Both the position numbers and the translations under genes were made by a program. A stretch of DNA of 57,753 nucleotides, from NCBI GenBank assembly GCA_046723845.1, contig JBKOVG010000028.1, positions 1 to 57,753 of the forward strand. Reading direction: 5' to 3'. The notes beneath the pieces are model-generated. The model saw only the letters and a list, made by a program, of their open reading frames with translations, was not told the origin of the DNA and did not search any database. This DNA comes from Candidatus Methylomirabilota bacterium. Its GTDB lineage: Bacteria > Methylomirabilota > Methylomirabilia > Rokubacteriales > CSP1-6. Every line of letters starts with the position of its first letter. The first letter of the stretch is position 1. Shown here in pieces: positions 482 through 35,836 of this stretch.

Positions 482-524
482 GCACGGGCGGATAGCTCAG
501 GTGGAAGAGCACGGACCTTACAAG
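482..524 (+). repeat. Left attachment site: 5' half of tRNA-Val, direct repeat of 35757-35799
   Basis: GCACGGGCGGATAGCTCAGGTGGAAGAGCACGGaCCTTACAAG matches 35757-35799 at 42 of 43 positions (first 33 bp perfect). No T-arm or 3' acceptor strand follows. Confidence 0.93.
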
Positions 525-542
525 ACTTGAAGCGCGCGATCG

Positions 543-583
543 CCCCTCGGTAAGTTGCTGTCTTGGCGAGGGGTTTGTTTTTT
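543..583 (+). terminator. Intrinsic terminator just inside the left att site
   Basis: CCCCTCGgTAAG-loop-CTTGgCGAGGGG hairpin followed by TTTGTTTTTT. Confidence 0.65.
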
Positions 584-630
584 CCGCGCTACGCCGCCAT
601 AGCCTGAATCATCCCGTTTTAGCCCGCCAC

Positions 631-650
631 GGGCACCATTCTGGGCACCA
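631..650 (+). repeat. Putative integrase arm-type binding sites (left)
   Basis: GGGCACCA-ttct-GGGCACCA, 19/20 identical to 35689-35708. Confidence 0.7.
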
Positions 651-908: not shown

Positions 909-1090
909 CTACTGGATGACCTCATCCGCCCGCAGCAGCAGCAATGACTGCGGGATCGTCAGCCCGAGAGCCTTCGCAGCCTTCAGGTTGATGACTAGCT
1001 CGAACTTGGTTGGCTGCTCGACGGGTAGGTCGCCGGGCTTGGCGCCCTTGAGAATCTTGTCCACGTAAGTGGCAGCGCGGCAGCCGACCT
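909..1090 (-). pseudogene. C-terminal remnant of an ABC transporter substrate-binding protein (ABC_sub_bind type)
   Basis: [55 protein letters not shown] is the typical C-terminus of this family; the N-terminal part is missing. Confidence 0.8.
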
Positions 1091-1099
1091 CGGACACGC

Positions 1100-1308
1100 A
1101 ATCCTCGGCATCGGCCATGCCGACGATGCTCTGCGCCAGGCGCACGGCGGGCGCGCGATGCACGATGACGAGCGCCAGGACCTGATCGATCGTCACGCGG
1201 TTGTACCGCGTGGTGAGCGCGAGTCGCCGGGTGCAGCGCGAACGGCGCCATGGGATCGGTGACCTTCATGAGGTTGAGGTCGCCGGTCAGCACCAGCGTC
1301 CGCTTCAT
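1100..1308 (-). pseudogene. N-terminal remnant, possibly CapA/metallophosphatase family
   Basis: [24 protein letters not shown] resembles the start of CapA-type proteins (xxxGDxNL), after which the frame degenerates. The left boundary is approximate. Confidence 0.4.
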
Positions 1309-1367
1309 GGCTCACCATGGTAGGGTCCGAGGGGACCATCGGTCGACGACGAAGCTGGAGGACGGCG

Positions 1368-1772
1368 ATGGGAATCAAGGGCATCGATCACTGGGTCATC
1401 GTCGCGGGTGATCTCGAGCGCACGCTCGACTTCTACCGGAGGCTCGGCTTCACGATCGCCTGGGAGAAGCGCCCGGGCCGTCCCGACATGGCGACGATCC
1501 GGATCAACGACGCGCAGAAGATCAACGTCCACGGGCCGGATGCGCCGGCGCACCCGGCCTACCTCGGCGCGTGCAGACCGACGATCGGGGGCGCCGACTT
1601 CTGCCTCGAATGGGAGGGGAGCGTCGACGAGGTACTCGCCCTGCTCGAGAAGAACGGTGTGAGGCTCGAGGCGGGCCCCGCGCCGCGCACGTGCGCACGC
1701 GGGACCTCGACCAGCGTCTACCTCCGCGACCCCGACGACAACCTGGTCGAGTTCACCGTCTACGGCAGGTGA
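1368..1772 (+). CDS. VOC/glyoxalase family protein
   Basis: IDHWVIVAGDLERTLDFY...GADFCL...SVYLRDPDDNLVE motifs; GGAGG RBS before ATG 1368. Confidence 0.9.
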   Translation: MGIKGIDHWVIVAGDLERTLDFYRRLGFTIAWEKRPGRPDMATIRINDAQKINVHGPDAPAHPAYLGACRPTIGGADFCLEWEGSVDEVLALLEKNGVRLEAGPAPRTCARGTSTSVYLRDPDDNLVEFTVYGR

Positions 1773-1784
1773 CCCGAGGCCGCC

Positions 1785-2471
1785 TCACTGGGCCAGCATC
1801 ACCGTGCGGCCCGTGGCCGACGATCGCTCGATCGCGTCGATGAGCTTGTGGCGCCGGACGGCGAGGTCGAAGTCGACGTCGAACGATCCACGGCTGCGCA
1901 GGGCGTCGGCCGCGCGCGCATAGGCCTGGGCGACGTTGTAGGGCTGACCGGCCGGGGGACCCTCGGGTGCGAAGGCGTACTTGGCGGGCGCCGGCATCGG
2001 CGCCATCGGCTCCTTGCCCCGGCCCGCGAGCAGCTGGCTCGATCCGGTGTTGAACGAGCCGTCCGCGCGCAGCACCAGCGCACCCTTGCGTCGATAGATC
2101 TCGATCCGGTTGCCGCCGGGATTCGAGGGGACGGCGGCCACGTTGACCGCCACCTCGGCGTCTCCCACCATACGACCGACGACTGTGATGCTATCCGGCG
2201 AGTCGACGGTGACCGGCGTGCCCTCGAGCGTGCGCCACTGGGGGATCCGCGTCGTCACGCGGGCCGAGACCTCGGCGAACTCGCCCAGGACCGCCCACAG
2301 GGCGTCGATCGCGTGGCCGCCGGTGATGGTGAGCACGTTGGCGCCGTTCGCCCGGACAGCCTGCCAGATGCGGCCGGGCCCGCGCTGCAGCTGAGCCTGC
2401 ACGACGCAGCTGAGATTCGCCGACAGCACCTCGCCGATGTAGCCCTCCCGGACGAGATCGCGTGCGTGCAT
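1785..2471 (-). pseudogene. Gfo/Idh/MocA oxidoreductase, N-terminally truncated
   Basis: ARDLVREGYIGEV...GGHAIDAL...LIDAIERSSATG is the C-terminal half. The Rossmann domain is absent and the fragment abuts an unrelated one. Confidence 0.75.
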
Positions 2472-2479
2472 GATCGCCG

Positions 2480-2782
2480 GCGCGCTACGCGCTGGTTGAC
2501 GATCGCCATCACGCGCTCGCCGAGGCGGAACGTCGCGCGCTCGCCGACGGCGTCGACCACGCCAGCCAGCTCCATGCCGGGGATGAAGGGCGGTCGGACG
2601 CCCATCTCGGCCAGCTGGTCGACTGTGAACTGCCGCCCGCTGCCGAAGCTGATGTCGATCGGGTTGACCGTCGCCGCCGCGACGGGAATCCGCACCTCGT
2701 CGGCGCCGGGGGTCGGCTCCGGCAGCTCCGACACCTCCAGCACCCCGGGGCCGCCCAGCCGGGAGAAGGTCACGGCGCGCAT
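2480..2782 (-). pseudogene. N-terminal fragment of an MDR-family (zinc ADH/quinone reductase-like) oxidoreductase
   Basis: MRAVTFSRLGGPGVLEVSELPEPTPGADEVRIPVAAATVNPID...PFIPGMELAGVVDAVG; similarity ends after ~100 aa. Confidence 0.75.
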
Positions 2783-2783
2783 G

Positions 2784-3242
2784 TCAGTACCGTCCGCCAA
2801 GCTTGCGGTGGTCCCAGCTCACGATCTTTTCGGGGACGATCTTGAGCACGACGCGCTTGGGCGCGCTGGCCACGGCCCCCTGATTGACTCGCGTCGGATT
2901 CGTCTGCGCGACCGCCCGTCCCTCGAACGCCGCCCGCACCGCGGCCTCGCCCTCGAGGATCTCGCAACGGCCGCGAATCATGACCCCCCGCAGCTCGGCG
3001 TACTCGTCGCCGGCCTCCACCATGAGCGCCACCTTGGGGTTACGCCGGATGTTGACGACCTTCTGGGCCTTACCGTACGAGGTCATGTAGAAGGCGCCGT
3101 CGCGGGCGAAGTAGTTCATGGCCACGACGTGGGGGAATCCGTCCCCGTCGATTGTCGCGAGGGCGGCCCTCTTGCGCTCTCGGAAGAACGCGGCCTGCTC
3201 GTCGGGGGTGAGCTGGATCTGCTGGCGCCGATTGATGGCCAT
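2784..3242 (-). CDS. Pyridoxamine 5'-phosphate oxidase-like (PPOX class) protein
   Basis: ALATIDGDGFPHVVAM...QKVVNIRRNPKVALMVEAG..Y.ELRGVMIRG...SWDHRKL; purine-rich RBS. Confidence 0.88.
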   Translation of the reverse strand: MAINRRQQIQLTPDEQAAFFRERKRAALATIDGDGFPHVVAMNYFARDGAFYMTSYGKAQKVVNIRRNPKVALMVEAGDEYAELRGVMIRGRCEILEGEAAVRAAFEGRAVAQTNPTRVNQGAVASAPKRVVLKIVPEKIVSWDHRKLGGRY

Positions 3243-3261
3243 CTATGGTCTTCTCCTCTCT

Positions 3262-3440: not shown

Positions 3441-3917
3441 CGGGCCGTCCCGGTGCACCTCGGCCCAAAGAACGCCGCTCGCAGCAGCCCTTCCTCCAGC
3501 ACGAGCCCGTTCATCGGCCCGAGAATTGTCTTGCGGGGGCAACAAGCCGTCAAGCGCCGCGCAGCGGGCAGACGGCCATTCGGGGCGTCAGCGAAGCGCG
3601 TCAAGACTACAGGCTGGTTGGTTCAGGTGGATGCTGACGGCCGTTGCGCGGCGAAAGGCTTCGCGGTCTCGCTACAGTCAGCCAACTGGCCGCCTTGTAC
3701 CGAATGGATCCTGCAATGCTATGGCCTCTCATCGATTCCGTACGACGAGTCCCATCAGTACGGACTGCCTGGACCGGCACCAGGGCGCCCACGATGGGGA
3801 TCAGGACGAGCAGGAGCTGAACGGCGCCTGCCGCCGGACCGGGCAGCCAGGCATCTTCAAAACGCTGGGCGGGGCACCGACCAGACAGGCGGGCACTGAG
3901 GCTCCGCGAGTATTGAC

Positions 3918-4094
3918 ATGGGGACCGATGCCCTCCCAGACTACTGCCGAGCGGGAGGTCCTATAGCACCTGAACCGCAGACGACGTGGCCCCTGGCCCG
4001 GACGCTGGCGTGGGTCGTCCTCGCCGTGATGGCGGTGGCGCTCTGCTACACGGGTTGGATCGCCATCTCGAACTTCAGCCGGATCGGCGTATGA
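3918..4094 (+). CDS. Small membrane protein upstream of norC (not in ORF track)
   Basis: Manual translation ends ...WPLARTLAWVVLAVMAVALCYTGWIAISNFSRIGV*. The stop overlaps the next ATG (ATGA). Start is uncertain: ATG 3918, or ATA 3963 after GGAGG. Confidence 0.5.
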   Translation: MGTDALPDYCRAGGPIAPEPQTTWPLARTLAWVVLAVMAVALCYTGWIAISNFSRIGV

Positions 4095-4291
4095 CGAGCG
4101 CCCTACTCGTCCTGCTGTCGCTGGCGGTGCTGGGCGCTAGTCTGGCACTCCTGGCGGCGAGCCTGGGCCTGAGCGTGCTAGCGGACGTGCTGGCTGCCGC
4201 ATCCGGTCTGAGCGGCCTCGCGGCCTTCGTGGTGGTCGCCGCCTTCACGGTGCGCCGCGCCCGGCAGCTCGGCAAGGCGGTGCGGCCATGA
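4091..4291 (+). CDS. Small two-helix membrane protein coupled to norC
   Basis: MTSALLVLLSLAVLGASL...FVVVAAFTVRRARQLGKAVRP; ATGA overlaps on both sides. Confidence 0.55.
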   Translation: MTSALLVLLSLAVLGASLALLAASLGLSVLADVLAAASGLSGLAAFVVVAAFTVRRARQLGKAVRP

Positions 4292-5101
4292 CCACGCGCT
4301 CCGCGCGCGCCTTTTTCGTGGTGAGCACGCTGCTCAGCGCGCTGGTCTTCCTCGCGCTCACCATCCAAAGCCACCGCAAGATCCCGGCGCTGACCAACGC
4401 CGCGTCCATCGATGCCATGGTGATCGCGGGCAAGAACGTGTGGCACCGGAACAACTGCATCAACTGCCACACCTTGCTCGGTGAGGGAGCCTACTACGCG
4501 CCCGATCTCACCCAGATCACCGCGCAGCGGGGCGCCGCCTACCTCCGCGAGTTCCTAAAAGACCCATCGCGCTTCTACTCCGAGGAGCGTGATCGCCGGC
4601 TCATGCCCACGCTCCCTCTCCGACAACGACATCACCGCCGTCATAGCGTTCCTCGGATGGGTCAGCAAGATCGATACACAGGGCTGGCCGCCGCGCCCCA
4701 TCCTGGTCAAGGGGAGCGCCGTGCCGGGCGCCAACCTCGGCGCGCCGCCGGCAACGGCCGCGTCCAATGATCCCGTCGAGCTCGGTCGCGTGGCGTTCAG
4801 CTCCACGCCCCCCGGATGCTCGGCCTGTCACTCGATCTCCCCCGGCGTCAACATCGTGGGCCCGACCCTCGCGAGCATCGGCACCACGGCCGCAGCTCGG
4901 ATACGTGCCGCGGACTATCACGGCCACGCGACGGACGCGGCCAGCTACATCCGCGAGTCGATCGTCGATCCGAACGCATACGTACTCGCCGGGCCGACCT
5001 TCTCGGCTGGGGGACGCTCCCTCATGCCGAGCGACTACGCTCACACTCTCAAGCCGGAGCAAGTGGACCACATCGTGGCCTACCTGCTCAGGCTCAAGTA
5101 G
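4288..5101 (+). pseudogene. norC: Nitric oxide reductase cytochrome c subunit with a second heme domain, frameshifted near 4620
   Basis: TM anchor + GKNVWHRNNCINCHTLLGEGAYYAPDLT. It continues in another frame as SDNDITAVIAFLGWVSKIDTQGWPPRP...CSACH...LMP. The shift lies in a CTCTC run. Confidence 0.8.
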
Positions 5102-5111
5102 GGGTGCCGAG

Positions 5112-5390
5112 ATGCGCTACTCGTCCCAGCGTGTCGCATATTCCTACTTCGTCGTGGCCATGCTGCTGTTCGGCCTGCAGGTCGCCTTCGGCCTGCTCGC
5201 GGTGGCCAAGTACCTCGGTCCCGATCCTCTGCTCCAGGTGCTGCCCTTCGACGTGGTCAAGGTCATCCACACCAACCTGCTTCTGGTCTGGGTCCTCACC
5301 GGGTTCATGGGCGCGGCCTACTACGTGGTGCCCGAAGAGTCACGGGTCGAGCTCCACAGCGTGCGGCTAGCCTACTGGCAGCTCGGCATA
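5112..5390 (+). pseudogene. norB: Nitric oxide reductase large subunit, N-terminal fragment
   Basis: MRYSSQRVAYSYF...HTNLLLVWVLTGFMGAAYYVVPEE matches the NorB N-terminus; cut after ~92 aa. Confidence 0.85.
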
Positions 5391-5402
5391 AGCGCCGCCA
5401 GG

Positions 5403-5805
5403 CGCATAGGAAAACATTAAGGGCACTGCGCCCACTTGCGGCGGCCTGCGGGGGGCCGCGAGAATCCCAGCGTTACCTTGGCGGAGCGCCGGACACCGCG
5501 CGATTTTGATCGCACTCCCAGGTGACGGCGTTCTTGCGAGAGGGACGTCGTCCAGAGGTGCGTGAGCGGGGCAGACGGCTGCCCTCGCGGCCGGCGCCGT
5601 CGTTGATCAGGAGACGCTCTGAGCGGCCCGCCGGGCCGCCGGGGGGGGTACCCGGTGGCCCCGGTGTGATCGGGCTGGGGCGGGGCCGGGAGTGTCAGGA
5701 CCCGGCGCCGACTTGAGGTGGGCGAGGATGGCGCGCACGACCGCCGGATCCTGGATGGTGGCGACGACGCGCAGCCGGCCGCCACACCGGGGCAGGCGAC
5801 CAATC
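5403..5805 (-). mobile_element. IS91/ISCR-like rolling-circle transposon remnant (transposase C-terminus plus oriIS-like end)
   Basis: (C)PRCGGRLRVVATIQDPAVVRAILAHL is typical of IS91-family transposase C-termini. The minus strand ends TTAATGTTTTCCTATGCG, which has the TTCCTAT core of oriIS. Confidence 0.6.
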
Positions 5806-6916: not shown

Positions 6917-7393
6917 GCCACCCGGATGTCCGGAGAGGACTTGCCCATGATCGTCCGTTGGCCTCCGATCGTGCTCGTCGCGCTTTACTGTCTGCTCGCT
7001 CTTGCCAAGTTGGCCTCCGCTGGGAGTGCATGGGTGCTTCGATTTCTGCTCGCGCCCGTCGTATCCCGTTGGGGCCCTCCTGCTCCACCTGAACCCTCCA
7101 GGGGGTCCGACGCAAGATCTGCAGCGCCTCGTCCGCTTCGTCAGCCCGTGGACACAGCCCTGAATGGTGTCGGGAGAGCTGACCCCTGGCCTGAATCGTC
7201 CTCGTCGTTCTCGCCGGGCCGGCCACTCAAGGCCTCCAGGAATGGCGTTTACGGCTCGTCGGTCACCGCGAAGCGGATCGAATCCCTGAAAAATGGTCGT
7301 GGAGGCCGCTCACCTGTCGTCGTCTCTTACGATTCTGAGCTTCGGGCGAAATTCCCACTCGGTAAGTCACTGAAGCTAGTGATGAGGACGTCT

Positions 7394-7409
7394 AGGTATG
7401 TGCATTGCA
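7394..7409 (+). promoter_or_regulatory. Candidate sigma54 promoter for the flp/tad operon
   Basis: aGGTATGTGCATTGCA has GG-N10-GC spacing, ~100 bp upstream of flp. Confidence 0.5.
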
Positions 7410-7511
7410 GTCCACACTGTACGAGCGGTTTCACAGAACGCCAAGAAATGCAGTTGGGTGCAGTGCATCACATACCTCCCGCACATGCGGTGAGCATAGG
7501 AGGAAGGTGGA

Positions 7512-7688
7512 ATGAAGAAGGTCCTCGGATACCTGAAGGACGAGCAGGGCATCGAGACGCTGGAGTGGATCGCGGTGGGCGCGCTGATCGTGGCGGTGGC
7601 GCTGGTGGTCTATCCCGGCACGCTGCAGGGTGGGCTTCAGACTGTCGTGCAGGCGATCACGGACAAACTCACGGGCATCATCACCTAG
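7512..7688 (+). CDS. flp: Flp family type IVb major pilin (58 aa, absent from ORF track)
   Basis: Manual translation MKKVLGYLKDEQG|IETLEWIAVGALIVAVALVVYPGTLQGGLQTVVQAITDKLTGIIT. DExG cleavage site, Glu at +5, hydrophobic helix, AGGAGG/AAGG RBS; first gene of the tad cluster. Confidence 0.9.
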   Translation: MKKVLGYLKDEQGIETLEWIAVGALIVAVALVVYPGTLQGGLQTVVQAITDKLTGIIT

Positions 7689-7771: not shown

Positions 7772-8239
7772 GTGCGACACTTGCGATCGGGGAACCAGCG
7801 GGGTACGTCGACACTGGAGTTCGTCGTCGTCCTGCCCACGCTCCTGATCATCTTCCTCGGCGGGCTCGAGCTGAGTCGGGCGTGGCTCACCGCCAACATC
7901 GCCGCCAATGCGGCCCGGGAGGGTGCCCGCGTCGGAGTGGTCACGCCTGCGCTCGGCACGGATCCCAACGCTCCCGTGTTCGACGACACCGCCGCCGTCG
8001 CCCGGATCAACGACATTCTGACCGCCGCGAACCTGACCCCGGCTCCGAGCGGCGTCAGCGTCACCTGCACTCCCCCTCCGTCGCCCCCGCCCGGGCTGAG
8101 CGGGTGCATACCGGACTCGCGGGTCACGGCCTCAGTCACGATCGATTTCGTCACCGTCGCGCCGCTCTTCCTCCCAGTGCTGGGCACTCCGGGCGCCCCC
8201 CTGGTCCTGACCGAAACCACCATCATGCGGCGCGAATAG
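7772..8239 (+). CDS. tadE: TadE-like minor pilin
   Basis: NQRG|TSTLEFVVVLPTLLIIFLGGLE...AAREGAR motif. The real start is GTG 7772 inside track ORF 6926..8239. Confidence 0.9.
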   Translation: MRHLRSGNQRGTSTLEFVVVLPTLLIIFLGGLELSRAWLTANIAANAAREGARVGVVTPALGTDPNAPVFDDTAAVARINDILTAANLTPAPSGVSVTCTPPPSPPPGLSGCIPDSRVTASVTIDFVTVAPLFLPVLGTPGAPLVLTETTIMRRE

Positions 8240-8255: not shown

Positions 8256-9140
8256 ATGCGTCGGCGATTCTTGCTGATTCTCCTCTGCGCCTCCGTTATC
8301 GGCCTCCTGGCAAGCCTGCTCGTGTACCGAGTCGTCAGCCAGGTGGCACGCGCCCGCAGCGACCAGTCAGAGCAGATCGTGGTCGCGGCGACCAACCTGG
8401 GCCTCGCGGATACGGTCACGAGCCAGCACATCAAGCTGGTCAACTGGCCCAAGGCATCCGTCCCGCCCGGCGCCCTCCGGACCACCACGGAAGCGGAGGG
8501 CCGGGTCGTCAGAAGCTCCGTCGTCGCCGGCGAGCCGCTCATCGAGGCCAAGCTCGCCCCCCAGCTCACGGGCAAGGGCGGCATCATGCCGATGCTGATC
8601 CCGGAAGGCCAGCGGGGGGTCACCATCAGGATGGACGAGGCCACCCGGGAGAGCGGCTTCGTCATGCCGAACAGCCGGGTCGACGTCCTCGTCAGCATGC
8701 CCAAGGCGCCGGGATCGAACGAGAAGATCGCCAAGGTGATCCTACAGGACGTCACCGTTCTCGCCGCCGGCCAGATCGTCGAGATGAAGGACAACAAGCC
8801 GGTGACGAACACGACCGTCACCCTCGCCCTCACGCCGCAGCAGGTGGAGCGGCTGGCGGTTGCGCAATCGGACGGCCGCCTGATGCTGGTTCAGCGCAAT
8901 CTCCGCGATACCGAGTTCGTCCGCACGCCAGGCGCTACTCCATCGTCGCTCCTGAGCGACGTCGCCCCGGCATCGAAGCCAGAGGCCAAGCCGACCGTTC
9001 TCACGCGCGGCGCTCCCCTGCCCGTTCCCACGCTGGAGAAGTTCCCGGTGGCAGTGATCCGTGGGACCAAGGTGAGCGAGCAGACGTTCGTACGTGACCG
9101 CGGCAATTCCTGGGCCGAGGAGCCGGGCCTGAAGCAATGA
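8256..9140 (+). CDS. cpaB: Flp pilus assembly protein CpaB/RcpC
   Basis: TM anchor, SAF domain (VVAATNLG...WP...VPPGA), SGFVMPNSRVDVL, ILQDVTVLAAGQ, TVTLALTP. Confidence 0.93.
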   Translation: MRRRFLLILLCASVIGLLASLLVYRVVSQVARARSDQSEQIVVAATNLGLADTVTSQHIKLVNWPKASVPPGALRTTTEAEGRVVRSSVVAGEPLIEAKLAPQLTGKGGIMPMLIPEGQRGVTIRMDEATRESGFVMPNSRVDVLVSMPKAPGSNEKIAKVILQDVTVLAAGQIVEMKDNKPVTNTTVTLALTPQQVERLAVAQSDGRLMLVQRNLRDTEFVRTPGATPSSLLSDVAPASKPEAKPTVLTRGAPLPVPTLEKFPVAVIRGTKVSEQTFVRDRGNSWAEEPGLKQ

Positions 9141-9625
9141 AGCGCACAGGAGGTTGGTCAATGCGTCTACCGATCCTTTTCAACCACTCCGGAGTTCTCG
9201 TCGTGCTGGCGGCAGCGGCCGCCCTCGTGGCGGGACCGGCCGCCGCCCAGACCCCGACGCCTGTCTACGTCGCGGTGGACGGGTCCATGCTCCTGACCTT
9301 GACCGAGCCCGCCCGCAAGGTCGCGGTGGCGAACCCCGCCATCGCGGACGTCCAGGTGATCAGCCCGGCGCAGCTCCTGGTCGTGGGCAAGTCCTCGGGT
9401 GTGACCTCGCTGATGATCTTCTCCGGAAAGGCGCTCCAGTCCTACAACCTCATCGTCCATCCCTCTTCCATCGCCGCGGCGAGCACCAGTACCACGCTGC
9501 CGCCCCCGCACGCGGTCCTCGTCCAGCGGGGAGACAAGATGGCCGAGCACCTCTTCACGCGCGGACCCGATCAGCGCTGGCTCGAGCTGGGTCAGGTCAA
9601 GCCGGAAACGGACGCCAAGAAGTGA
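9137..9625 (+). CDS. Exported stand-alone secretin N-terminal-domain protein
   Basis: Signal peptide (AAA|Q). VAVANPAIADVQVISPAQLLVVGKSSGVTSL is paralogous to the N-domain of the next gene. Confidence 0.8.
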   Translation: MKRTGGWSMRLPILFNHSGVLVVLAAAAALVAGPAAAQTPTPVYVAVDGSMLLTLTEPARKVAVANPAIADVQVISPAQLLVVGKSSGVTSLMIFSGKALQSYNLIVHPSSIAAASTSTTLPPPHAVLVQRGDKMAEHLFTRGPDQRWLELGQVKPETDAKK

Positions 9626-24085: not shown

Positions 24086-24205
24086 CGGCATCGTGACGGT
24101 TCGCGGTCATCACCGACTGCGGGATCGACTCCCACTCCGTTCTCGAACGCCATGATCGCGAGTCCCGGAAACGCACGCACGGGGACGCGCAGAGGAATGC
24201 GAGCC

Positions 24206-24523: not shown

Positions 24524-24603
24524 CCGGCAACATCCGAGACCGCGGAGATCGCGGTCAGTGTAAGGCGCTCGAGCAGTCGCCGGAGGGGTCTCTGCCAGCC
24601 TGG

Positions 24604-26307: not shown

Positions 26308-26416
26308 AGGCGACGCGGTCGGCTCGGCCGATCGTCGTCGTACCTTGAAGATTCGGGGGCGTTCCGGTTTAGACTGAGCCATTGACGGCGAAGACGCGCC
26401 CCGGGCTCCGGGCCTG

Positions 26417-27817
26417 ATGCGTCTATACCGAGAGTCCAACGATCTCAGCGAAGAGGACACCATGTCGCCAGGACACGACGATCCGCGCTGGCCAACCCGT
26501 CGCGACGTACGAGACAGTGAGGTCCCGGCGGGCCCGTCTCCTTCCTCCGATCTACTTGAAGGGCCACCGGCCGATCCGTTTCTTCCTCCCCTACTGACGA
26601 CGGCCGAAGACTCTGGCCTGGACCTCGGTTTCCTGGCCGACCTCGCGCTCAAGACGGCCTATGCGGACACGAACTGCACCACCCAGAGGGCGGCCCAGCA
26701 GCTCGCCCTGCCGGTCGGCATCGTCGACGTTCTGCTTCAGCATCTCTACCGCGAGCACTTCATCGAGATCCGGGAGACACTCTCGCAGCAGAATCGCCGG
26801 TATGCGATGCTCGATCGCGGTTGGGAGCGCGTGCGCCGCCTCCTGGACCTGAACGCCTACATCGGCGCCGCGCCGGTCTCCCTCAGCGCGTACAGCGCCA
26901 TGGTGAGGCGCCAGGAAGAGCGCCGACCCCCGGTCGATGACGGGGCCATCCGGTCCGCTCTTGCCGACCTCGTCCTGCCCGAGTCCACGCTTCAGGTGCT
27001 CGGGGTGGTGGCCAACTCCCGACGGAGCCTGTTCATCACGGGCGCGCCAGGCAACGGCAAGACCTCGATTGCCCGAGCCCTCCACGCGGCTCTTCGGGGC
27101 GACATCTGGATACCGCGGGCCATCGAGGTGGACGGCCACGTCATCAACGTATTCGATTCGCACAATCATGCGCCGGTCGACCCACCGCCCACCGCTCCTC
27201 ACGATCAGCGCTGGATCAAGATTCGGCGGCCGCTCGTGGTCGTGGGAGGAGAGCTCACCATCGAGAGCATGGACCTGACCTACGACCAGACCGTGAAGTT
27301 CTACGAGGCTCCGTTTCAGATCAAGTCCAATGGCGGCAGCCTGCTGATCGATGATTTCGGACGCCAGAGAATACAGCCACGGGATCTCTTCAATCGCTGG
27401 ATCATACCCCTGGAGAATCGCGTCGACTACCTGACGCTGCATACCGGCAAGAAGATCCAGGTGCCGTTCGAGCAGCAGCTGATCTTCGCGAGCAACCTGA
27501 GCTCCTCTGGCTTCGGCGAGGAGGCCTTCCTCCGGAGGCTCGGCTACCGTCTCGCCGTAGACCCCCCCAGCCCCCAGATCTACGCGCGGATATTCCAGAA
27601 ATACGTCGAGGCACAGCGGCTCCGTTGCGATCCTCGACTCGTCGAGGCGCTCCTCGCCCGCTACCAGCAGGAGGAGCGAGAGATGAGGTCCTGCCAGCCG
27701 CGCGATCTCGTCGACCGCTGCCGCGACATCTGCCGCTACGAGGACCGTCCTTTTGCCTTGACCAGGGAGCTCCTCGACCGCGCGTGGCTGTACTACTTCG
27801 GCGCGCAGGCCTCCTGA
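26417..27817 (+). CDS. AAA+ ATPase with N-terminal winged-helix-like segment
   Basis: Walker A GAPGNGKT, Walker B LLIDDFGRQ, FASNL sensor, AFLRR. Confidence 0.85.
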   Translation: MRLYRESNDLSEEDTMSPGHDDPRWPTRRDVRDSEVPAGPSPSSDLLEGPPADPFLPPLLTTAEDSGLDLGFLADLALKTAYADTNCTTQRAAQQLALPVGIVDVLLQHLYREHFIEIRETLSQQNRRYAMLDRGWERVRRLLDLNAYIGAAPVSLSAYSAMVRRQEERRPPVDDGAIRSALADLVLPESTLQVLGVVANSRRSLFITGAPGNGKTSIARALHAALRGDIWIPRAIEVDGHVINVFDSHNHAPVDPPPTAPHDQRWIKIRRPLVVVGGELTIESMDLTYDQTVKFYEAPFQIKSNGGSLLIDDFGRQRIQPRDLFNRWIIPLENRVDYLTLHTGKKIQVPFEQQLIFASNLSSSGFGEEAFLRRLGYRLAVDPPSPQIYARIFQKYVEAQRLRCDPRLVEALLARYQQEEREMRSCQPRDLVDRCRDICRYEDRPFALTRELLDRAWLYYFGAQAS

Positions 27818-27821
27818 GCGC

Positions 27822-29084
27822 TCAGGCGCTCTCGGCCGGCACTGCCCGCCCCGGAGCGGTCATCGCCGCCCAGATCTGGTACACACCGAGTCCAACCAGC
27901 ACCAGTGTATACAGCTGCAGGGTCCTGTTGACCCCGATAGGTACCGGCGGGATCCACGGCACGACGTAAAGCAGAACGAAGAGGATTCGGACCGCCCGCG
28001 GCATCGCGTCCCACCTCGAGTAGAGCGCACCGGCCGCGAGCGCCATCCCGAGCACGACGATCGTCGTATCGTACGGGGCCACGTAGACATTCAGGACCAT
28101 CGTCCACGTGAGGGTGGCGGCCCACGTGAGGCCCGACTCCACCGAGCCCTCGCGTCGTCGGGCTCGCCACAGCTTGACCAGCCACGGCAGCACGCCCGCC
28201 GTCACCACCGCCATGACGCCCAACGCCCAGTGCCCACGGCCCCCGACGGCTAAGCGAACGAACGAGTTGAGGTCGACATAGTCCGAGAGCAGGAAGGAGT
28301 TGCGCGGGCCCGTCGCCATCGTTCCGAAGCGGAGCAGCATCGCCACGTAGTCGGCGCATCCCTGCCACCCCACCACCAGCACTGACACCGCGCCGAGCAC
28401 CGCGGTGCCTGCGCCGAACCCGACCAGGATGCGGCGGCGGCATCCGACGACGAGCATCGGGAGCAGGAGCCCGAGCAGCGTCGGCTTCGAGAGGCACAGG
28501 GACAACGCGATCCCGGCCCAGTAGTCTTGCCGCCGGCGCTGACACCACAGTGCGGCGGCCATCCAGAAGAACGTCAGGGCGGCCACCTGCCCGCGAGCGA
28601 TGCTGTCCACCGCCACCGGCCGGAACGACAGCATCAGGAGCAACGCGAGCGGCAGCTGGCCCCATGTCAGCGAGTCGCTCGCCCGCCACACGAGGGTGAA
28701 TCCCAGGCCGAACAGAACTAGGGAGAACAGCTGCCATGCCACGAGCGCCGACTCGAATGGCAGCAGCGCAAAAGGTCGAAACGCGATCGCCTCGAAGGGC
28801 GCGTGAGCGTAGAGCTGTTTCACCTCCGCGGGCAACGCCGGGAACAGCGAGTGGTACGTGCCATTGAAGGACTCCGGGGCGTAGAGAATTTCGGGTGAGT
28901 GGTTGAGGGCATACCCGACCGTGTAGAACGCCATGAACTCCCGCATCAGAGGTCTTCCCGATCGCAGCGCGTCGGTCTGGCTCTGAGCAAGTACCCAAAG
29001 GATTGCGATCGAGAGCGTCGCGGCTGCGACCTGCCACGGTCTCACTCGGAACGTCTCAGGGCCCGCCCGGACCACTGGGCTCAC
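27822..29084 (-). CDS. GT87/DUF2029-like membrane glycosyltransferase
   Basis: EFMAFY, YAHAPF..F.PFALLP, RGQ, KP, YD motifs; polytopic. Confidence 0.78.
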   Translation of the reverse strand: MSPVVRAGPETFRVRPWQVAAATLSIAILWVLAQSQTDALRSGRPLMREFMAFYTVGYALNHSPEILYAPESFNGTYHSLFPALPAEVKQLYAHAPFEAIAFRPFALLPFESALVAWQLFSLVLFGLGFTLVWRASDSLTWGQLPLALLLMLSFRPVAVDSIARGQVAALTFFWMAAALWCQRRRQDYWAGIALSLCLSKPTLLGLLLPMLVVGCRRRILVGFGAGTAVLGAVSVLVVGWQGCADYVAMLLRFGTMATGPRNSFLLSDYVDLNSFVRLAVGGRGHWALGVMAVVTAGVLPWLVKLWRARRREGSVESGLTWAATLTWTMVLNVYVAPYDTTIVVLGMALAAGALYSRWDAMPRAVRILFVLLYVVPWIPPVPIGVNRTLQLYTLVLVGLGVYQIWAAMTAPGRAVPAESA

Positions 29085-30615
29085 TGGTCCTTTCGAAGAT
29101 CACGACCGATACCGTACCGAAGCGTCCGATCGGACGAGACGAAAACCCCATGGGCCCGAGCGTATGCTCGAGCAATTCCCGAAACGGAACAGACCGCCCG
29201 TGAAAGAAGTCGTGTGTGTTGACCACGAGAACGAAGGACCCTCGTTCCCTGGCCAGCATCATCGAGACTTGCCGGAGGTAGCCGGTGCCCTCGTCGCCCA
29301 GGTCGTACGGCAGTGGAATCGCCGGGCCAGGCACGCGATAGAACGCGACCGGCGCGACGAGGTAGCCTGCCTCCTCCGGGTCCAGGGGCCATCGGAGACG
29401 AGCCGATTCGATGAATGTCGCGCCAACGAGCACCGGCACCGGCCTCCCGTTGGTCGCGTCGGCCGCGGCATGCAGTGCCATCCGCCAATCTTCCATCCGC
29501 TCGACACCGACCCCCATCCCGAGCACGGACAGGCCGGCCACAATCGTCACCAGCACCAGCCGGATACGGGAGCTTCGGACGCCCCTGATCGTCCACGCCA
29601 TGATCAGAGCGATGGCGGGTGCCGCGCACAGAAAGTACCTGGACACGAGCACCGTCGGGCTCATCCATCGTGCCGCGGCCACGACCATGATGACCGGCAT
29701 CGCGGCCCAGCACGACAGGAGTACCAGTGGCGCCGGCACACGCAGGTAGTGGGCTGGCAGGCGCCGCTCGAGCAGGGCGCTGCCGGCGACGATCGCCAGC
29801 GGCGCGACAGCGAATCGTATGTCTCCCCAGCCGCGGAATGGTGCGCCGCTCACGGCGGACATCCACATCCGTCGCTGCCACACCGGGGGTAATGCCACGG
29901 CCAGGGGCACCAGCAGCAGTCCGATGGCACCGGCCGTGACCACGGCGCTTGACCAGCCGATGGGCGCAGTGCCGCGCCGCGCGCGGTCGACCGCGTGGAC
30001 GACATGGACGACGAACATGACGGCGAACAGTGGCTGAATGTAGACGGTCAGCACGCTCAGCATCACATACGCGGCCCAGTCCACCGGATGCCGGCGGCCG
30101 AGCCAGCGATCCAGGGCCACGACCGCGGCGATGAGCACCAGGAGCCCGATCGCGTAGCCGCGCGCCGTGATGGCCGCGTCGGCCACGAGCCAGTAGCTCG
30201 CGAAGCACACGGCCGCGAGCGCCCCCATCTCCCGGTCCACGAATCGGAGACCCAGTCGGTAGACCAGCGCCGTAGATGCCGCGGCCGCGAGAATCGACGG
30301 AATCCGAAGCATCCATTCCGTCGCCCCGCCCGCCGCGACCGCCGCCCACGCGACCACGAAATAGGCGGGGGACTGCGCGTTGAAGTGCAGCGACCGTCTG
30401 AACAGCGCCGGCAAGCCGTCCTTCACCACCCAGTAGGTGATCGTCTCGTCGAGCCAGAGGCTCGACCAAAGGGGCAAGATCCAGAGCACCACCACCGACA
30501 CCGTCAACACACCGGCGAGATACACCATCCGCTTCGGGTCCGACGGGAACCCAGATTGGTGCATGCGTTCCGCGCCATCATCGCCACCTACGCTGCTAGC
30601 GGTCAGGCCTGACAT
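29056..30615 (-). CDS. GT39/GT83 (PMT/ArnT-like) membrane glycosyltransferase
   Basis: SLWLDE, SPAYF, LRIPS, ARGYA, RY motifs; polytopic. Confidence 0.82.
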   Translation of the reverse strand: MSGLTASSVGGDDGAERMHQSGFPSDPKRMVYLAGVLTVSVVVLWILPLWSSLWLDETITYWVVKDGLPALFRRSLHFNAQSPAYFVVAWAAVAAGGATEWMLRIPSILAAAASTALVYRLGLRFVDREMGALAAVCFASYWLVADAAITARGYAIGLLVLIAAVVALDRWLGRRHPVDWAAYVMLSVLTVYIQPLFAVMFVVHVVHAVDRARRGTAPIGWSSAVVTAGAIGLLLVPLAVALPPVWQRRMWMSAVSGAPFRGWGDIRFAVAPLAIVAGSALLERRLPAHYLRVPAPLVLLSCWAAMPVIMVVAAARWMSPTVLVSRYFLCAAPAIALIMAWTIRGVRSSRIRLVLVTIVAGLSVLGMGVGVERMEDWRMALHAAADATNGRPVPVLVGATFIESARLRWPLDPEEAGYLVAPVAFYRVPGPAIPLPYDLGDEGTGYLRQVSMMLARERGSFVLVVNTHDFFHGRSVPFRELLEHTLGPMGFSSRPIGRFGTVSVVIFERTSEPSGPGGP

Positions 30616-30980: not shown

Positions 30981-31757
30981 CTAGGACCTGGAGAACGGCC
31001 CGCTCCGCTTTGTTCGTCCTGAATCTATATGGTCGACGCGAATGTGGTCAGCCGACGAGCCAATCAATTCGAGCCGAAGCACTGACGATGAGGCGCTAGG
31101 TCTGCGCCCGAGCACTTGCGATACGACGCCGGTGAGGGCCAGGACGGCGAAAGGTTTATGGAGAAACGGCCACCCGCACTCCTTGATCCCGGCCACCTTA
31201 TAGCCTGACATGAGTACGACCTTCATCTCTGGCTGAGATTCTAAAAGCCGACGGGCCAATTCGCGCCCGCTCATGACCGGCATGACCACATCAACGAGCA
31301 GGAGATCCGGAATGCACGATCGGTCATGCAGCATTCGAATAGCTTCCAACGGATCGGTAGTGCTGAGTACGGTATAGCCGTCGGGAACAAGGATATCTTG
31401 GGCGAGCGGGCCGATCTCGGGTTCGTCATCCACGACGAGGATCGTGCCCTTGGACGACAGCTCGGGCGTTGGGTCTGGCGGAGCCGATACCTCTCCGTTG
31501 GCATCCGCTATCCACCGGTCGATCTCCCGGCAAGCCAGGGTCAGCGCGGCCCGTTCGATCTCGAAGACCAACGCCGCTCCTTCGAACGTGATCCGGCGGC
31601 CCGCAAACAGCCCGTCGATATGGGCGACAAGCACGAATCGGCGGCACCATGCCGCGTCGGGCTCGCCGCTCAGGGGAACGCGCCACACCGGCAAGAGATC
31701 GGTCCCGCCCACACGCTCTGGCTGGCCAGCGCGCCGCACAACTCCAGTCAACCACAC
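30981..31757 (-). CDS. Response regulator receiver protein with N-terminal extension
   Basis: ILVVDDE...DLLLVDVVMPVMSG...MSGY...FLHKPF. Confidence 0.8.
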   Translation of the reverse strand: MWLTGVVRRAGQPERVGGTDLLPVWRVPLSGEPDAAWCRRFVLVAHIDGLFAGRRITFEGAALVFEIERAALTLACREIDRWIADANGEVSAPPDPTPELSSKGTILVVDDEPEIGPLAQDILVPDGYTVLSTTDPLEAIRMLHDRSCIPDLLLVDVVMPVMSGRELARRLLESQPEMKVVLMSGYKVAGIKECGWPFLHKPFAVLALTGVVSQVLGRRPSASSSVLRLELIGSSADHIRVDHIDSGRTKRSGPFSRS

Positions 31758-32273: not shown

Positions 32274-34181
32274 TCATGCTGGGGACTCCGGAGTCAGGAG
32301 CCACTCCCACCGGACCCCCTTCTTGACGCTGTCGCAGACGCGCTCGCGGGCCCGTCGGAGGGTGATCTTCGTGAACCCCGCCGCCGCGGCGTCCTTCATG
32401 ACGTCTTCGGAGTGGCGGGGGCCGGCGACCAGGTATTCGCGGAGCCAGGCCTCGCATTGGCGTCGGCTGCCGCGGTCCTCCGGGGATTCTTGGGGCGGGG
32501 TGAAGATGTCCGTGAGGTTGACCGTGACGGGTTGGGCTTCCCACGTGATCCACGGGACGGCGGCGTCGTCAGCGGCCACGATACGGTAGGCGAGGGTCGG
32601 GACGCGACCGTAGAGGTTGCCCTTGAGCTTGACCAGAAAGCGCCGCGGGTTCGCGCTGTCATCGTCGGGATCCTGCGCGACACCGAGGACGACGCGTGGC
32701 ACGGCCGTGAAGGCCACGGAGCCGCCGGCGTAGTAGTGCAGGTTCGTGGTGACCTTGGGCGGATGCATGAGGCCGATGCCGGCGGCGCCCGTGCGGGCCA
32801 GGAGCGTTGCGAAGGGAGTGAGGACGCGGCGGACGTCGGCGTCGTTGTGTGATTTCACGTTCCCGAGATAGCCGATGATGCCGTCGACAACCACGAGGGC
32901 GGGATGCTCCGTCTCGATGGCATGCTCGAGGGCGTCAATGTCCCGCTCCAGCGTCAAGAGCGAGAGCGCCCCATCGGCGTCACGAACCATCTGCACGAAG
33001 CTGATCTTGGTGAGGTCGGCGCCCGCCTGGCTCAGGCGGGGCACGATGGTGCTGGCGAGCGTGTCCTCGTTCGTGAGCATCAGCGAGCGCCGAGACGCCC
33101 CACGGCCGGCGACCGCGGCCGCGGGGGGCAGCGGCGAGCCCACGGACAACCGGGCCATGTAGTCGCATGCGACGAGCGTCTTGCCTTGGTCGGGGAGCCC
33201 GACACCCATCGTGAGCGCGCCGACGGCCAGCCGGCCCGGGTCCACCCAGGTGATCGGTTTGGGCGTCACGCTGCTCGCGGGCACGAGGATGGCCGCCCGC
33301 CCGCCGGGCCGCAGGGGCACGCCAGGCTTTGCCCGCTCGCCGGGCGGCTTCCGCGCATCCTTCGCGGCCAGGTCGCGGACGATCTCCCGCACTTCGCCCT
33401 CGGGGAAGGGGGGAACGCAACGGGCCGCGTACCCCAGGAGGATAGCCTCGACCTCCGTGGTCACAATATGGAGGCCGAGATAATGGCCCGCGATTTCCAG
33501 CGCCACCGCGCGGCGCCGCCCCTCGGGAGCTCCGCGGAGCCGCTCGGCCCACGCATCGGGCGTGGCCCGCGGCCCAGTTCCATTGCTCAAGCTCGACGAC
33601 GTGGCCAGCGCGAGGTCGACCAGCCAGCTCGGCATCGGGGCCAGATCGGTCTCGAAGAGCGGGCGATCGGGGTCGTCGTGATAGACGCCTCCGCTGACAT
33701 GCCCGGAGGGCGGGACCAGGACGTAGCCTCCCTGTGCCCGAATGTCGAGCCCGGCCCCGACGACGCCGCTGCTACACCGGAGGTGGGGCACCGGCTGGAA
33801 GTAGTGGTGAGCACCGCCACCGCCCGTCCACACTTGGGGCGTCACCGGTAGCGCACCGTGGTGGCGCTCGAGCGCCGCGAGGGCACCGTTGCCTCCGTGG
33901 CGCGGGTCCACATCCAGCACGGCGCACCAGGTCGTGGGCGTCGCAATATGGGCGTGTGGATGGCGCCGCCACCACGCTGTGATCCGCGCGATCTCCGTCG
34001 CCGCGTCCTTGAGCCCGTTCGGCGCGACGTCGCCCAGAGGGTGCTTGCCTGAGTCTTTGCAGTTGGGGCCGCGGCCACACGCACAGTGACGATCCGCGAT
34101 CCACCAGCACGGGAAGATAGGCACGTCCCGCTCGGCATAGGCGAGCGCCGCGTCCAGCATCGTCCTCGCAATGGTCTTCAT
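32274..34181 (-). CDS. Bifunctional DNA primase/polymerase fused to AAA_25-type helicase
   Basis: AALAYA, C.C...C...GKHP, VLDVDPRHGG, TGGGGAHHYF, DIRAQGGYVLVPPS (Prim-Pol); P-loop GLPDQGKT, LVVVD, H..K, GS.AF. Confidence 0.9.
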   Translation of the reverse strand: MKTIARTMLDAALAYAERDVPIFPCWWIADRHCACGRGPNCKDSGKHPLGDVAPNGLKDAATEIARITAWWRRHPHAHIATPTTWCAVLDVDPRHGGNGALAALERHHGALPVTPQVWTGGGGAHHYFQPVPHLRCSSGVVGAGLDIRAQGGYVLVPPSGHVSGGVYHDDPDRPLFETDLAPMPSWLVDLALATSSSLSNGTGPRATPDAWAERLRGAPEGRRRAVALEIAGHYLGLHIVTTEVEAILLGYAARCVPPFPEGEVREIVRDLAAKDARKPPGERAKPGVPLRPGGRAAILVPASSVTPKPITWVDPGRLAVGALTMGVGLPDQGKTLVACDYMARLSVGSPLPPAAAVAGRGASRRSLMLTNEDTLASTIVPRLSQAGADLTKISFVQMVRDADGALSLLTLERDIDALEHAIETEHPALVVVDGIIGYLGNVKSHNDADVRRVLTPFATLLARTGAAGIGLMHPPKVTTNLHYYAGGSVAFTAVPRVVLGVAQDPDDDSANPRRFLVKLKGNLYGRVPTLAYRIVAADDAAVPWITWEAQPVTVNLTDIFTPPQESPEDRGSRRQCEAWLREYLVAGPRHSEDVMKDAAAAGFTKITLRRARERVCDSVKKGVRWEWLLTPESPA

Positions 34182-34624
34182 GCGTCGGGCGTGTCAAATC
34201 GCATGCACAGCTCCAACGCCGCCACTTCGACGACCGCCGCGGCGGACAGAATCTCCCAACCCAGGAAGTCTCCCTCGCCTAACCCCGTCGCGAACGCTCG
34301 CGCGATGGTCGCGGTGCGAAACGCTCGCCGGATGGCGACGGCCGCCCTCGAGCGCAAGCCGTCGGCGGTCATCGCCGTCCCTCACTCGCTGGGGACGCTA
34401 TTCGCTGCTGTCGGCCTCTGGGCACGTCCCACGCGACCGGCACCCAATGCGGCGAGCGGGCGCGGGATCTCGTGCACGAATCGCGCGTGCGAGGGCTCTT
34501 GGCTCGTGTGCCGGTCAGCGGAGTAGCGGGGGGCTCGTTGACCCCCGAGGCGGCGGCGATGCTCAAGGCGAGGACGAAGCCGAAGAGCCCGAGACGTTCA
34601 CCCCGAACAAAACGGAGACGCTAA

Positions 34625-35770
34625 GTGGGTAGCCTCTACCGAAAAAGGCGAAAGCAGCGCGACGGCACCACGGTCGAGGAGCAGATTTGGTGGGTGAAGT
34701 ACTACAAGGATGGCCGGCCGGTCCGCGAATCGACGGGCACGACGAAGGAGAAGGAAGCCGCCAACTTTCTCAAGCGACGAGAGGGCGACGTCGCGAAGGG
34801 CCACCCGATTCTCCCGCGGGCCGAGAAGGTGCGGTGGGAGGAAGCGGCGGCCGATCTGCGCCAGCACTACGAGGCGACGGGCGCTCGGGATCTCGTCGAG
34901 TATGATCGCCGGGTCGCGCACCTCACGCGGGTGTTCGCCGGCCGGCGCATCGCCGGGATCGATCAGGTCGGCGTCAACACCTACACCCTGAAGCGGCGCG
35001 AGGATGGCGTCGTGGACTCCACGATCCGCCGGGAGCTGGGGACGCTGATCACGCTGCTCCGGCGCGCCTATCGGAACGGAAAACTGCTCCAGCTTCCGCT
35101 GTTCGATCGGCCGAAGGGCGGGAAGCCGCGGGAAGGCTTCTTTGAGCGGGCGCCGTTCGATGCCGTGCGGCGCAAGCTCACCAACGAGGATCTCCGGGTC
35201 GCGGTCACGGTCGCCTATACGTTCGGCTGGCGGATGCAGAGCGAAGTGCTCACGCTCGAGCGCCGCCAGCTGGACCTTGACGCGGGAACGCTGCGCCTCG
35301 GTGCCGATACGAAGACCGACGACGGTCGGGTGATCTACCTGACGCCAGAGTGCGCGCGGCTCCTGGCCGCCCAGGTCGCGCGCGTCGAGGCCCTCCAGCG
35401 GCGGCTCGGTCGCGTGATCCCGTTCCTGTTCCCGCACCACGGGAAGGGCCCGCGGGCAGGGACGCGGCGGAAGGACTTTCGGAAGGCGTGGACGACGGCG
35501 TGCACGGCGGCCGGCGTGCCGAGGATGATCCGCCACGACTTCCGGCGGACGGCCGTCCGCAATATGGTCAACGCCGGGGTGCCGGAGCGGGTGGCCATGA
35601 CGATCACCGGCCACAAGACGCGCTACATCTTCGACGCCTACCACATCGTCAGCCCCGGCGACCTGCAGGACGCGGCGCGGAAGCTGGCGGGCACCATTCC
35701 GGGCACCATCGCTGTTTCAGTGATTGACGCCGGGCCGCAAGTACGCGAGACTCCACGCACGGGCGGATAG
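34625..35770 (+). CDS. int: Tyrosine recombinase / phage-type integrase
   Basis: N-terminal arm-binding-like WWVKYY..GRPVRESTGT; catalytic GWR..E, TK, HDFRR, GHK, Y; abuts the tRNA. Confidence 0.95.
   Translation: MGSLYRKRRKQRDGTTVEEQIWWVKYYKDGRPVRESTGTTKEKEAANFLKRREGDVAKGHPILPRAEKVRWEEAAADLRQHYEATGARDLVEYDRRVAHLTRVFAGRRIAGIDQVGVNTYTLKRREDGVVDSTIRRELGTLITLLRRAYRNGKLLQLPLFDRPKGGKPREGFFERAPFDAVRRKLTNEDLRVAVTVAYTFGWRMQSEVLTLERRQLDLDAGTLRLGADTKTDDGRVIYLTPECARLLAAQVARVEALQRRLGRVIPFLFPHHGKGPRAGTRRKDFRKAWTTACTAAGVPRMIRHDFRRTAVRNMVNAGVPERVAMTITGHKTRYIFDAYHIVSPGDLQDAARKLAGTIPGTIAVSVIDAGPQVRETPRTGG
35689..35708 (+). repeat. Putative integrase arm-type binding sites (right, inside int)
   Basis: GGGCACCA-ttcc-GGGCACCA, 19/20 identical to 631-650. 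Confidence 0.7.
35724..35752 (+). promoter_or_regulatory. Element-supplied sigma70-like promoter for tRNA-Val, inside int
   Basis: TTGACG-17 bp-GAGACT ending 8 nt before the tRNA, the same geometry as 449-477. Confidence 0.55.
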
Positions 35771-35836
35771 CTCAGGTGGAAGAGCACGGCCCTTACAAGG
35801 CCGGGGTCGCAGGTTCGAGCCCTGCTCCGCCCACCA
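35761..35836 (+). tRNA. tRNA-Val (anticodon TAC)
   Basis: GGGCGGA/TCCGCCC acceptor stem, CGGCC-CTTACAA-GGCCG anticodon arm, GGTTCGAGCC T-arm, encoded CCA; 76 nt. Confidence 0.98.

Follow-up and report, generated by a model that had tools for sequence, protein, structure and literature searches.

The stretch analysed here (57,753 nucleotides; in what follows, the window) is one whole contig, JBKOVG010000028.1, of a metagenome-assembled genome from the order Rokubacteriales of the phylum Methylomirabilota (G000; 6.3 Mb, 86% complete). Between positions 482 and 35836 it holds an island that is bounded by a repeat derived from a valine tRNA gene, carries a tyrosine integrase and a Prim-Pol primase-helicase at its right end, and encloses a locus for a Tad pilus (Table 1). 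The original prediction, made from the letters of the window, had described 43-bp tRNA-derived repeats, paired arm sites, an intact integrase and a Prim-Pol/helicase around a flp-tad cluster, all of which the sequence confirms, and had read the whole as a satellite-like or mobilisable element that delivers an adhesion pilus. We take the pilus instead to be probable captured cargo. The 5' polarity of the island, its decayed left cargo, an ISCR end and the missing tad activator, all treated below, go beyond that prediction.

The two repeat copies (482-524 and 35757-35799) differ by a single mismatch, the A at 515, and no further copy within 8 mismatches occurs across the 6.3-Mb assembly. The repeat ends just past the anticodon loop of tRNA-Val(TAC), whose gene at 35761-35836 is the assembly's only one of its kind, and the anticodon loop, 517-523 in the left copy, is the likely crossover site. 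A full tRNA gene with a same-strand 5' fragment upstream of it identifies a 5'-fragment tRNA-targeted island: the element lies upstream of the tRNA and has replaced its front and its promoter. Such polarity is rare but known, with 159 of 3919 islands in the Islander collection being 5'-fragment islands (PMC4383910). The paired 8-bp arm repeats at 631-650 and 35689-35708 have no other match in the assembly, and left and right arm words agree in three of the eight complete sister elements scanned (G169, G095 and G175). The left-arm layout (displaced half, hairpin with T-run, arm repeats) recurs in G003, G008, G082, G095, G122 and G175. The hairpin has a fold z score of -1.8 in the window and of -6.4 in the G008 copy, and a consensus terminator scanner made no call at 542-590. 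The element's own promoter-like site at 35724-35752 keeps its -35 box in most of the sister elements shown and scores under the scanner threshold in the window. The host-side promoter at 449-477 is similar to the native promoters of arm-free sites in G093, G049 and G151, which is why it was not read as left over from an older element.

The left flank is the usual neighbourhood of this tRNA. An AOR gene stands ahead of tRNA-Val(TAC) in G002, G003, G006, G013, G049, G070 and G151, and in G002, G013 and G151 no 5'-type element intervenes, which matches the empty site that the original prediction proposed to look for in relatives. In G004, the closest congener, a copy of window positions 1-412 at 85% identity comes after the AOR gene cluster, with no tRNA at that place; the same cluster is found on contig C228, the window's own. 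Four runs were compared as contigs at low depth (X1 and X3 from one study, X5 and X6 from two), with no long read or spanning contig. Contigs of X5 and X6 run from the repeat into the left arm, and position 515 is C in X3, X5 and X6, so that the repeat is perfect there. The suspicion that the left repeat is an assembly artefact is thus not borne out. No attP or attB joint and no loose end was seen among the rows listed for these low-depth contigs, whose ends were compared separately. In a search of sequencing runs, none contained as much as half of the words of the query and no RNA run was among those listed, a result that carries no information on expression. Excision from the A-515 allele would put an anticodon-stem mismatch into the sole tRNA-Val(TAC); the displaced fragment of G008 bears a different change. 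As separate observations, tRNA-Val(TAC) takes 3'-type islands in G003 and G006, and loci L059, L457 and L458 (G008, G122 and G095) hold tandem 5'-type elements at this tRNA, with attP-like junctions.

The arms, integrase and Prim-Pol belong to a family that is widespread in the order. The integrase retains residues R201, K230, H304-x-x-R307, H330 and Y339, and its stop codon falls within the tRNA. Among 183 species representatives of the order, the window's own genome counted, integrase relatives occur in 74 and Prim-Pol relatives in 23. The tRNA that follows the integrase lies on the same strand at 17 of 29 other genome loci (4 opposite, 8 with none) and at 37 of 80 metagenome loci (16 opposite, 7 with none, 20 too short to tell); the same-strand tRNAs are those for Val, Asp, Arg, Met, Ser, Lys or Leu, and 5' polarity is frequent among these integrases. 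The eight complete sister elements of the 5' type span 1.2-34 kb, the 34-kb one in G038 being cargo-rich; one of the eight encodes a Prim-Pol homologue and none carries tad genes. Several integrase relatives adjoin an HTH- or Xis-like gene, as labelled by eye. The island itself has no AlpA or excisionase match (PF12728 was searched genome-wide, AlpA through Pfam scans of the island frames), and since no excisionase is encoded, excision is probably rare. When strain differences were tested in the intact island genes, 15 of 17 proved synonymous, including 7 of 8 in the integrase and Prim-Pol genes, which appear from this to be under purifying selection. The earlier claim of an att-bounded integrative element with intact boundaries is supported. 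The X5 and X6 contigs break at 34458 and bear additional DNA, which suggests that this strain may have lost a segment between the two genes. G000 also encodes three further integrases of this family (C268, 29.7-30.0 kb; C47, 11.6-12.6 kb; and C443); one of these is a remnant that precedes tRNA-Val(CAC), and a paralogue of the response regulator lies near it.

Open reading frames of the island were screened against Pfam (71), NCBIfam (52) and PHROGs (31), intergenic frames against Pfam (117), and transfer-gene families were additionally searched across the whole G000 assembly. The Pfam, NCBIfam and PHROGs scans gave no match in the island to a relaxase, coupling protein, VirB4, FtsK, capsid or terminase, and PHROGs and Pfam none to packaging or capsid-interference genes within its 35.3 kb. 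The whole-assembly searches gave no match on the window contig and no FtsK/SpoIIIE Tra on C296; one coupling-protein match lies elsewhere, on C431. The predicted lack of relaxase, coupling protein, FtsK and capsid genes therefore holds through all of these searches, the intergenic ones included. Viral contigs held no relative of the integrase, Prim-Pol or RcpA and no exact attL match.

The pilus genes have a different distribution from that of the integrase. Flp, TadV, RcpC, RcpA, TadZ, TadA, TadB, TadC, TadE and TadG are all open in one locus, in which no TadD was identified; TadA, like Flp, scores slightly below its curated cut-off. TadA relatives at 66-84% identity occur in 24 of the 182 other genomes of the order, and an 80-locus sample from other taxa reached 53-65% among the matches listed. 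A 2.4-kb contig of G001 with a tad fragment was excluded from the orthologue count, as either transfer or a binning error is possible. An integrase match is absent from all 22 related tad loci examined, of which 13 span 33-60 kb, in a screen that had a control and left out G028 and G069, two of the 24 tad-positive genomes. Most of the block from flp on is also present in the sister genus g31, in G110 as far as the AAA ATPase, in a core-gene context. In the RpoB tree the host genus is sister to g31 (97/94), and the window locus groups with g31 both in a quick TadA tree (Shimodaira-Hasegawa-like approximate likelihood ratio test, 96) and in a second tree of six Tad proteins (100/100). The comparison of CpaF and species trees that the original prediction proposed as a check thus mirrors the sister-genus relation and gives no support to delivery of tad by the element. 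The same tad cluster at this locus without att repeats or integrase, which would have spoken against an element, turned up in none of the 183 species representatives.

Protein clusters at 90% identity point the same way. The block is represented by 222 members for TadA, 69 for TadG, 49 for the protein encoded at 24604, 37 for the AAA ATPase, 28 for RcpA, 18 for Flp and 17 for PMT, and the core by 3 for the integrase and 1 for Prim-Pol. One contig size, 37,176 bp, is common to members of the Flp, RcpA, 24604, AAA and PMT clusters at 97-98% identity and does not occur in the integrase, Prim-Pol and glyoxalase clusters, whose members were all listed. Such a contig leaves about 14 kb of flank, which would reach the integrase, Prim-Pol or glyoxalase gene if the context were equal. 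By this size match, the two glycosyltransferase genes travel with the tad block. The 24604 gene (24604-26307) encodes a multi-pass membrane protein of 567 aa, for which at least 3757 relatives were counted and in which the D70-E71 pair is invariant; we withheld a glycosyltransferase label from it, as it has no Pfam or PDB match and any role would be a guess. The tRNA genes that lie close to tad in G045 and G151 do not bracket it. The composition anomaly is weak (tetranucleotide distance of the tad region in the 82nd-94th percentile, GC 65-68% against 68.3%) and was not used as a sign of foreign origin.

The left part of the cargo is decayed. Positions 1252-3258 are 92-93% identical to G004:C591, where the genes are intact; in the window, the ADH and GFO oxidoreductase fragments are joined by a deletion of about 1.07 kb. 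The nitric-oxide-reductase-like copy is 90% identical to another locus of the same assembly (G000:C167), with 60 synonymous and 20 non-synonymous codon differences over its two genes and a 2-bp deletion at 4616. This mostly synonymous divergence, with the frameshift coming afterwards, suggests a congeneric donor. The ISCR remnant ends at 5401 against the truncated oxidase gene and has the tad block on its opposite side; its matches in three other genomes begin at 5401/5402, two of them checked base by base. ISCRs mobilise neighbouring DNA through one-ended transposition (PMC3575428). Congeneric fragments, an ISCR end and a tad/glycosyltransferase block of about 23 kb together make up a mosaic cargo. 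The tad side is, we assume from the geometry of IS91, the side that an ISCR placed here would capture.

The region upstream of flp is unusual for a tad locus of this order. Among relatives with at least 4 kb upstream, 10 of 15 loci have a full-length cognate sigma-54 activator near flp (three further loci were too short); none was found in the island, and the assembly holds no orthologue (best matches at most 48% and partial). The island has in its place a region that is 86% identical to the upstream region of a PEP-CTERM gene in congener G005, its only match among the 182 other genomes. The published PEP-CTERM upstream layout consists of a 17-nt motif, a spacer of about 62 nt and a sigma-54 site (Haft et al. 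2006, PMC1569441), and the 61-nt spacer of the window compares with the 62.8 +/- 10.6 nt given there; the sigma-54 site stands 102 nt ahead of flp. PrsR is encoded in G000 (585 bits, cut-off 502.6), and the box, spacer and sigma-54 site precede three of its seven PEP-CTERM genes. A composite promoter pattern, which was composed after the sites had been seen and is partly circular, occurs at 6 places in the assembly and at 0-1 in four shuffles; the 86% identity to the G005 upstream region backs it. With the cognate activator missing and the PEP-CTERM box present, control of the pilus operon by PrsR is predicted. Another tad locus, that of G136 (L097, about 14050-14750), combines a truncated activator with a PEP-CTERM-like box before flp in a genome that encodes PrsR, a possible parallel rewiring; G137 has PrsR, an intact activator and no box, and no PrsR match was found in G110, G119 or G005 (the last 71% complete). 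Two PEP-CTERM genes outside the island, 36194-36811 and 45583-46350, each have a box and a sigma-54 site; the former encodes a CHRD-domain protein in lower-GC DNA immediately past the tRNA.

We conclude, with a probability of roughly 0.6, that the window holds an integrase-plus-primase island in the 5' half of tRNA-Val(TAC), and that tad is a lineage-native block captured secondarily and not standard cargo. Captured cargo is the likelier status of the pilus because related genomes carry the cluster without an integrase nearby. In the mechanism we propose, the integrase would recombine within the anticodon loop, both the promoter and the 5' half of the tRNA would come from the element, and transcription from the host promoter left orphaned would be halted by the left hairpin. 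ISCR one-ended transposition or recombination, with a close relative as the source, likely brought in the tad block. Once excised, the circle would be replicated by Prim-Pol, and its exit from the cell would need a helper phage, a vesicle or the machinery of another element. Through the PEP-CTERM box, PrsR of the host would drive the pilus operon.

Several observations weigh against this conclusion. The Tad tree is not fully vertical, with two g36 genomes standing apart and the G001 fragment grouping with g15; judging from these placements, tad does move within the order. A TadA match is absent from eight of nine congeners and the ninth has the g15-type fragment, a pattern that fits acquisition or loss. 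The argument from the 37,176-bp contig is a size match with its DNA unread, and integrases are frequently under-assembled. In X1 and X3, both tad pieces and Prim-Pol-integrase pieces occur that differ little or not at all from the window, which would fit a stable loaded form that could move as a unit. The ISCR remnant lies 1.7 kb from flp, and no matching right-hand end was identified. As for the regulation, the tad activator could be unassembled in an assembly that is 86% complete, four of the seven G000 PEP-CTERM genes do not show the box layout, two of the six matches to the composite pattern precede neither PEP-CTERM nor flp genes, and the pattern was drawn up once the sites were known.

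In line with the original prediction, the full 35-kb island could be an active satellite-like or mobilisable element, able to excise and replicate and to carry the Tad pilus from one Rokubacteria host to another, which we regard as unlikely. Its ends, integrase and Prim-Pol are intact, its strain differences are mostly synonymous, the repeat is perfect in three other runs, tad of the G000 type was not found in the nine congeners, Tad loci are often transferred (PMC6668835), and a sister element of 34 kb with rich cargo is present in G038. Against it, the eight sister elements lack tad, the 22 tad loci screened lack an integrase match, and the 17-222 cluster members of the block stand against 3 and 1 for the core. 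The viral contigs offer no relatives either, and the label satellite-like or mobilisable is only partly sustained, since integrase and primase agree with it and the lack of AlpA or Xis, of a packaging gene and of a relaxase, with a length of 35.3 kb, does not.

It is improbable, in our estimation, that an ancestral element brought tad long ago and that the block has since been resident in an effectively locked island, with only the integrase/Prim-Pol core swapped or lost between strains. The far greater abundance of the block in protein collections, the decayed left cargo, the missing excisionase, the stem mismatch that excision of the A-515 allele would cause and the extra DNA at 34458 in X5 and X6, which suggests a deletion in this strain, would all be accommodated. 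The purifying selection apparent on both core genes and the perfect repeat in other runs argue the other way, as does the 37,176-bp contig, which by size fits one 7-kb flank, yet without the left glyoxalase or the Prim-Pol and integrase genes. An assembly chimera formed at the tRNA repeat is very improbable: the window is one metagenome-assembled contig that no long read or second contig spans, but the two repeat copies differ by one base, independent contigs cross the left junction, the left flank is syntenic, and the arm repeats, hairpin and promoter agree with those of sister elements. X5 and X6 hold near-identical left-arm and Prim-Pol-integrase pieces; the tad cargo is thinly covered in both, which was not counted as absence.

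A bolder extension, which we consider a long shot, is that a family without capsid or relaxase moves Tad together with glycosyltransferases across species, that PrsK/PrsR takes over the pilus, and that the element holds the sole tRNA-Val(UAC) promoter. Under this extension the PrsK/PrsR rewiring would have occurred twice, in the window and in G136.

The island can be set beside several known systems. With the 5'-fragment islands of Islander (PMC4383910) it shares a tyrosine integrase, a displaced upstream 5' fragment and a boundary at the anticodon loop; it differs in that its integrase family is commonly 5'-polar over many tRNAs, and in having a Prim-Pol and a full Tad cluster aboard. Cargo-carrying tycheposons (bioRxiv 10.1101/2020.12.28.424599) likewise combine a tyrosine integrase at a tRNA site, an adjoining primase/helicase and adaptive cargo with an absence of conjugation and capsid genes, whereas the integrase here points outward and not inward, no excisionase accompanies it and the host is from soil. 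Phage-inducible chromosomal islands (PICIs) of Gram-negative bacteria and PICMIs (PMC10111431, PMC10803314) also pair an integrase with a primase and lack a full phage or conjugation set. In contrast, the island has no AlpA or packaging gene, divergent integrase and Prim-Pol, a length of 35 kb against about 6-18 kb, and a tRNA site instead of fis. Actinomycete integrative and conjugative elements with Prim-Pol replication (PMC3218068) share the tyrosine integrase and PF09250 Prim-Pol; without an FtsK/SpoIIIE Tra, the island would not transfer itself by that route.

Like other Tad (type IVc) loci (PMC6668835), the pilus cluster is a single, transfer-prone locus with flp, tadE/G, rcpC, rcpA, tadZ/A/B/C and tadV. 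It departs from them in forming an order-specific clade and in its extra conserved genes, glycosyltransferase neighbours, missing cognate sigma-54 activator and lack of an identified TadD. The PEP-CTERM element with PrsK/PrsR (PMC1569441) agrees in the 17-nt motif, the spacer of about 62 nt, the sigma-54 site and the host PrsR; the copy in the window precedes a pilus operon, and its motif 1 ends in CTTACG instead of TTTACA. In the open literature searched, we found no paper on Tad pili in Rokubacteria and no matching title on Tad within att-bounded elements; for PrsR or PEP-CTERM control of Flp pili, only a genome paper was listed.

Vehicles that move Tad loci have seldom been mapped to the base, and the window provides a precisely bounded case from a soil lineage that is abundant and uncultured. 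A further result is a large integrase family whose members often rebuild the 5' ends and promoters of tRNAs. As a mobile element, the island is of a known kind, and movement of its loaded form is hypothetical. The apparent switch of the pilus operon from its cognate sigma-54 activator to a PEP-CTERM regulator is a point of specialist interest; if true, it would tie pilus adhesion to a surface programme linked to exopolysaccharide.

Table 1. Features of the island and its borders, in window coordinates. The labels nitric-oxide-reductase-like, AOR, GT-C and lipoprotein are based in part on Pfam hits or source names.
Feature	Position	Strand	Details
Sigma-70-like promoter on the host side, orphaned tRNA promoter	449..477	+	1 site against 0.1 expected in shuffles
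Left att repeat, displaced 5' half of tRNA-Val(TAC)	482..524	+	A at 515 differs from the tRNA
Terminator-like hairpin and T-run	542..590	+	directly after displaced half; conserved in sister elements
Left arm-type direct repeat pair, 8 bp	631..650	+	left and right words match within G169, G095, G175
Decayed cargo	909..3258	.	ABC substrate-binding tail, glyoxalase, ADH and GFO oxidoreductase fragments, PPOX gene
Nitric-oxide-reductase-like copy	3864..5389	+	cytochrome c and heme-copper subunit; frameshifted, truncated
ISCR/IS91-family remnant	5401..5800	-	NF052416, E 2.6e-5
PEP-CTERM-type upstream region	7079..7446	+	17-nt box 7315-7331, 61-nt spacer, sigma-54 site 7393-7409
flp pilin	7512..7688	+	G|IETLEW motif; Flp_Fap E 1.3e-3, under curated cut-off; orthologues in relatives
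tadE pseudopilin	7772..8239	+	PF07811
cpaB/rcpC	8256..9140	+	TIGR03177 above cut-off
Pilus N-domain protein and rcpA/cpaC secretin	9161..11037	+	9161-9625 (PF13629); 9634-11037 (PF00263)
tadZ, tadA/cpaF, tadB, tadC	11051..15535	+	Pfam/NCBIfam; TadA Walker motifs intact
Conserved unknown gene, tadG, three accessory genes	15553..20876	+	tadG 16193-17410; last gene a TPR-aspartyl protease
Remainder of block in common with sister genus g31	20873..27817	.	two multi-pass membrane proteins, tadV, probable lipoprotein, small membrane protein; ends with AAA ATPase 26417-27817
tadV prepilin peptidase	22528..23178	-	
Two GT-C-type glycosyltransferase genes (GT87, PMT_2)	27822..30615	-	PMT_2 under curated cut-off
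Response-regulator-domain gene	30981..31757	-	59% paralogue near another integrase remnant on C268
Prim-Pol/AAA_25 primase-helicase	32274..34181	-	intact
Tyrosine integrase	34625..35770	+	outward into tRNA; one open frame
Right arm repeats and element-borne promoter-like site	35689..35752	+	35689-35708 and 35724-35752; within integrase tail
Right att repeat and rebuilt tRNA-Val(TAC)	35757..35836	+	35757-35799 and 35761-35836

Some further features of the window and its relatives stand apart from the island. The congener tad fragment of G001 (L056, G001:C215) is near-identical to that of g15, by recent transfer or binning contamination. Positions 50339-54811 of the window encode a 929-aa Gly/Ala-rich low-complexity protein and then a 527-aa protein with a similar Asn/Gln-rich stretch; this region has no Pfam match, and its composition is the most deviant of the window. 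At the right end of the contig, 55822-57753, lie two divergent TPR-repeat genes with long inverted similarities.

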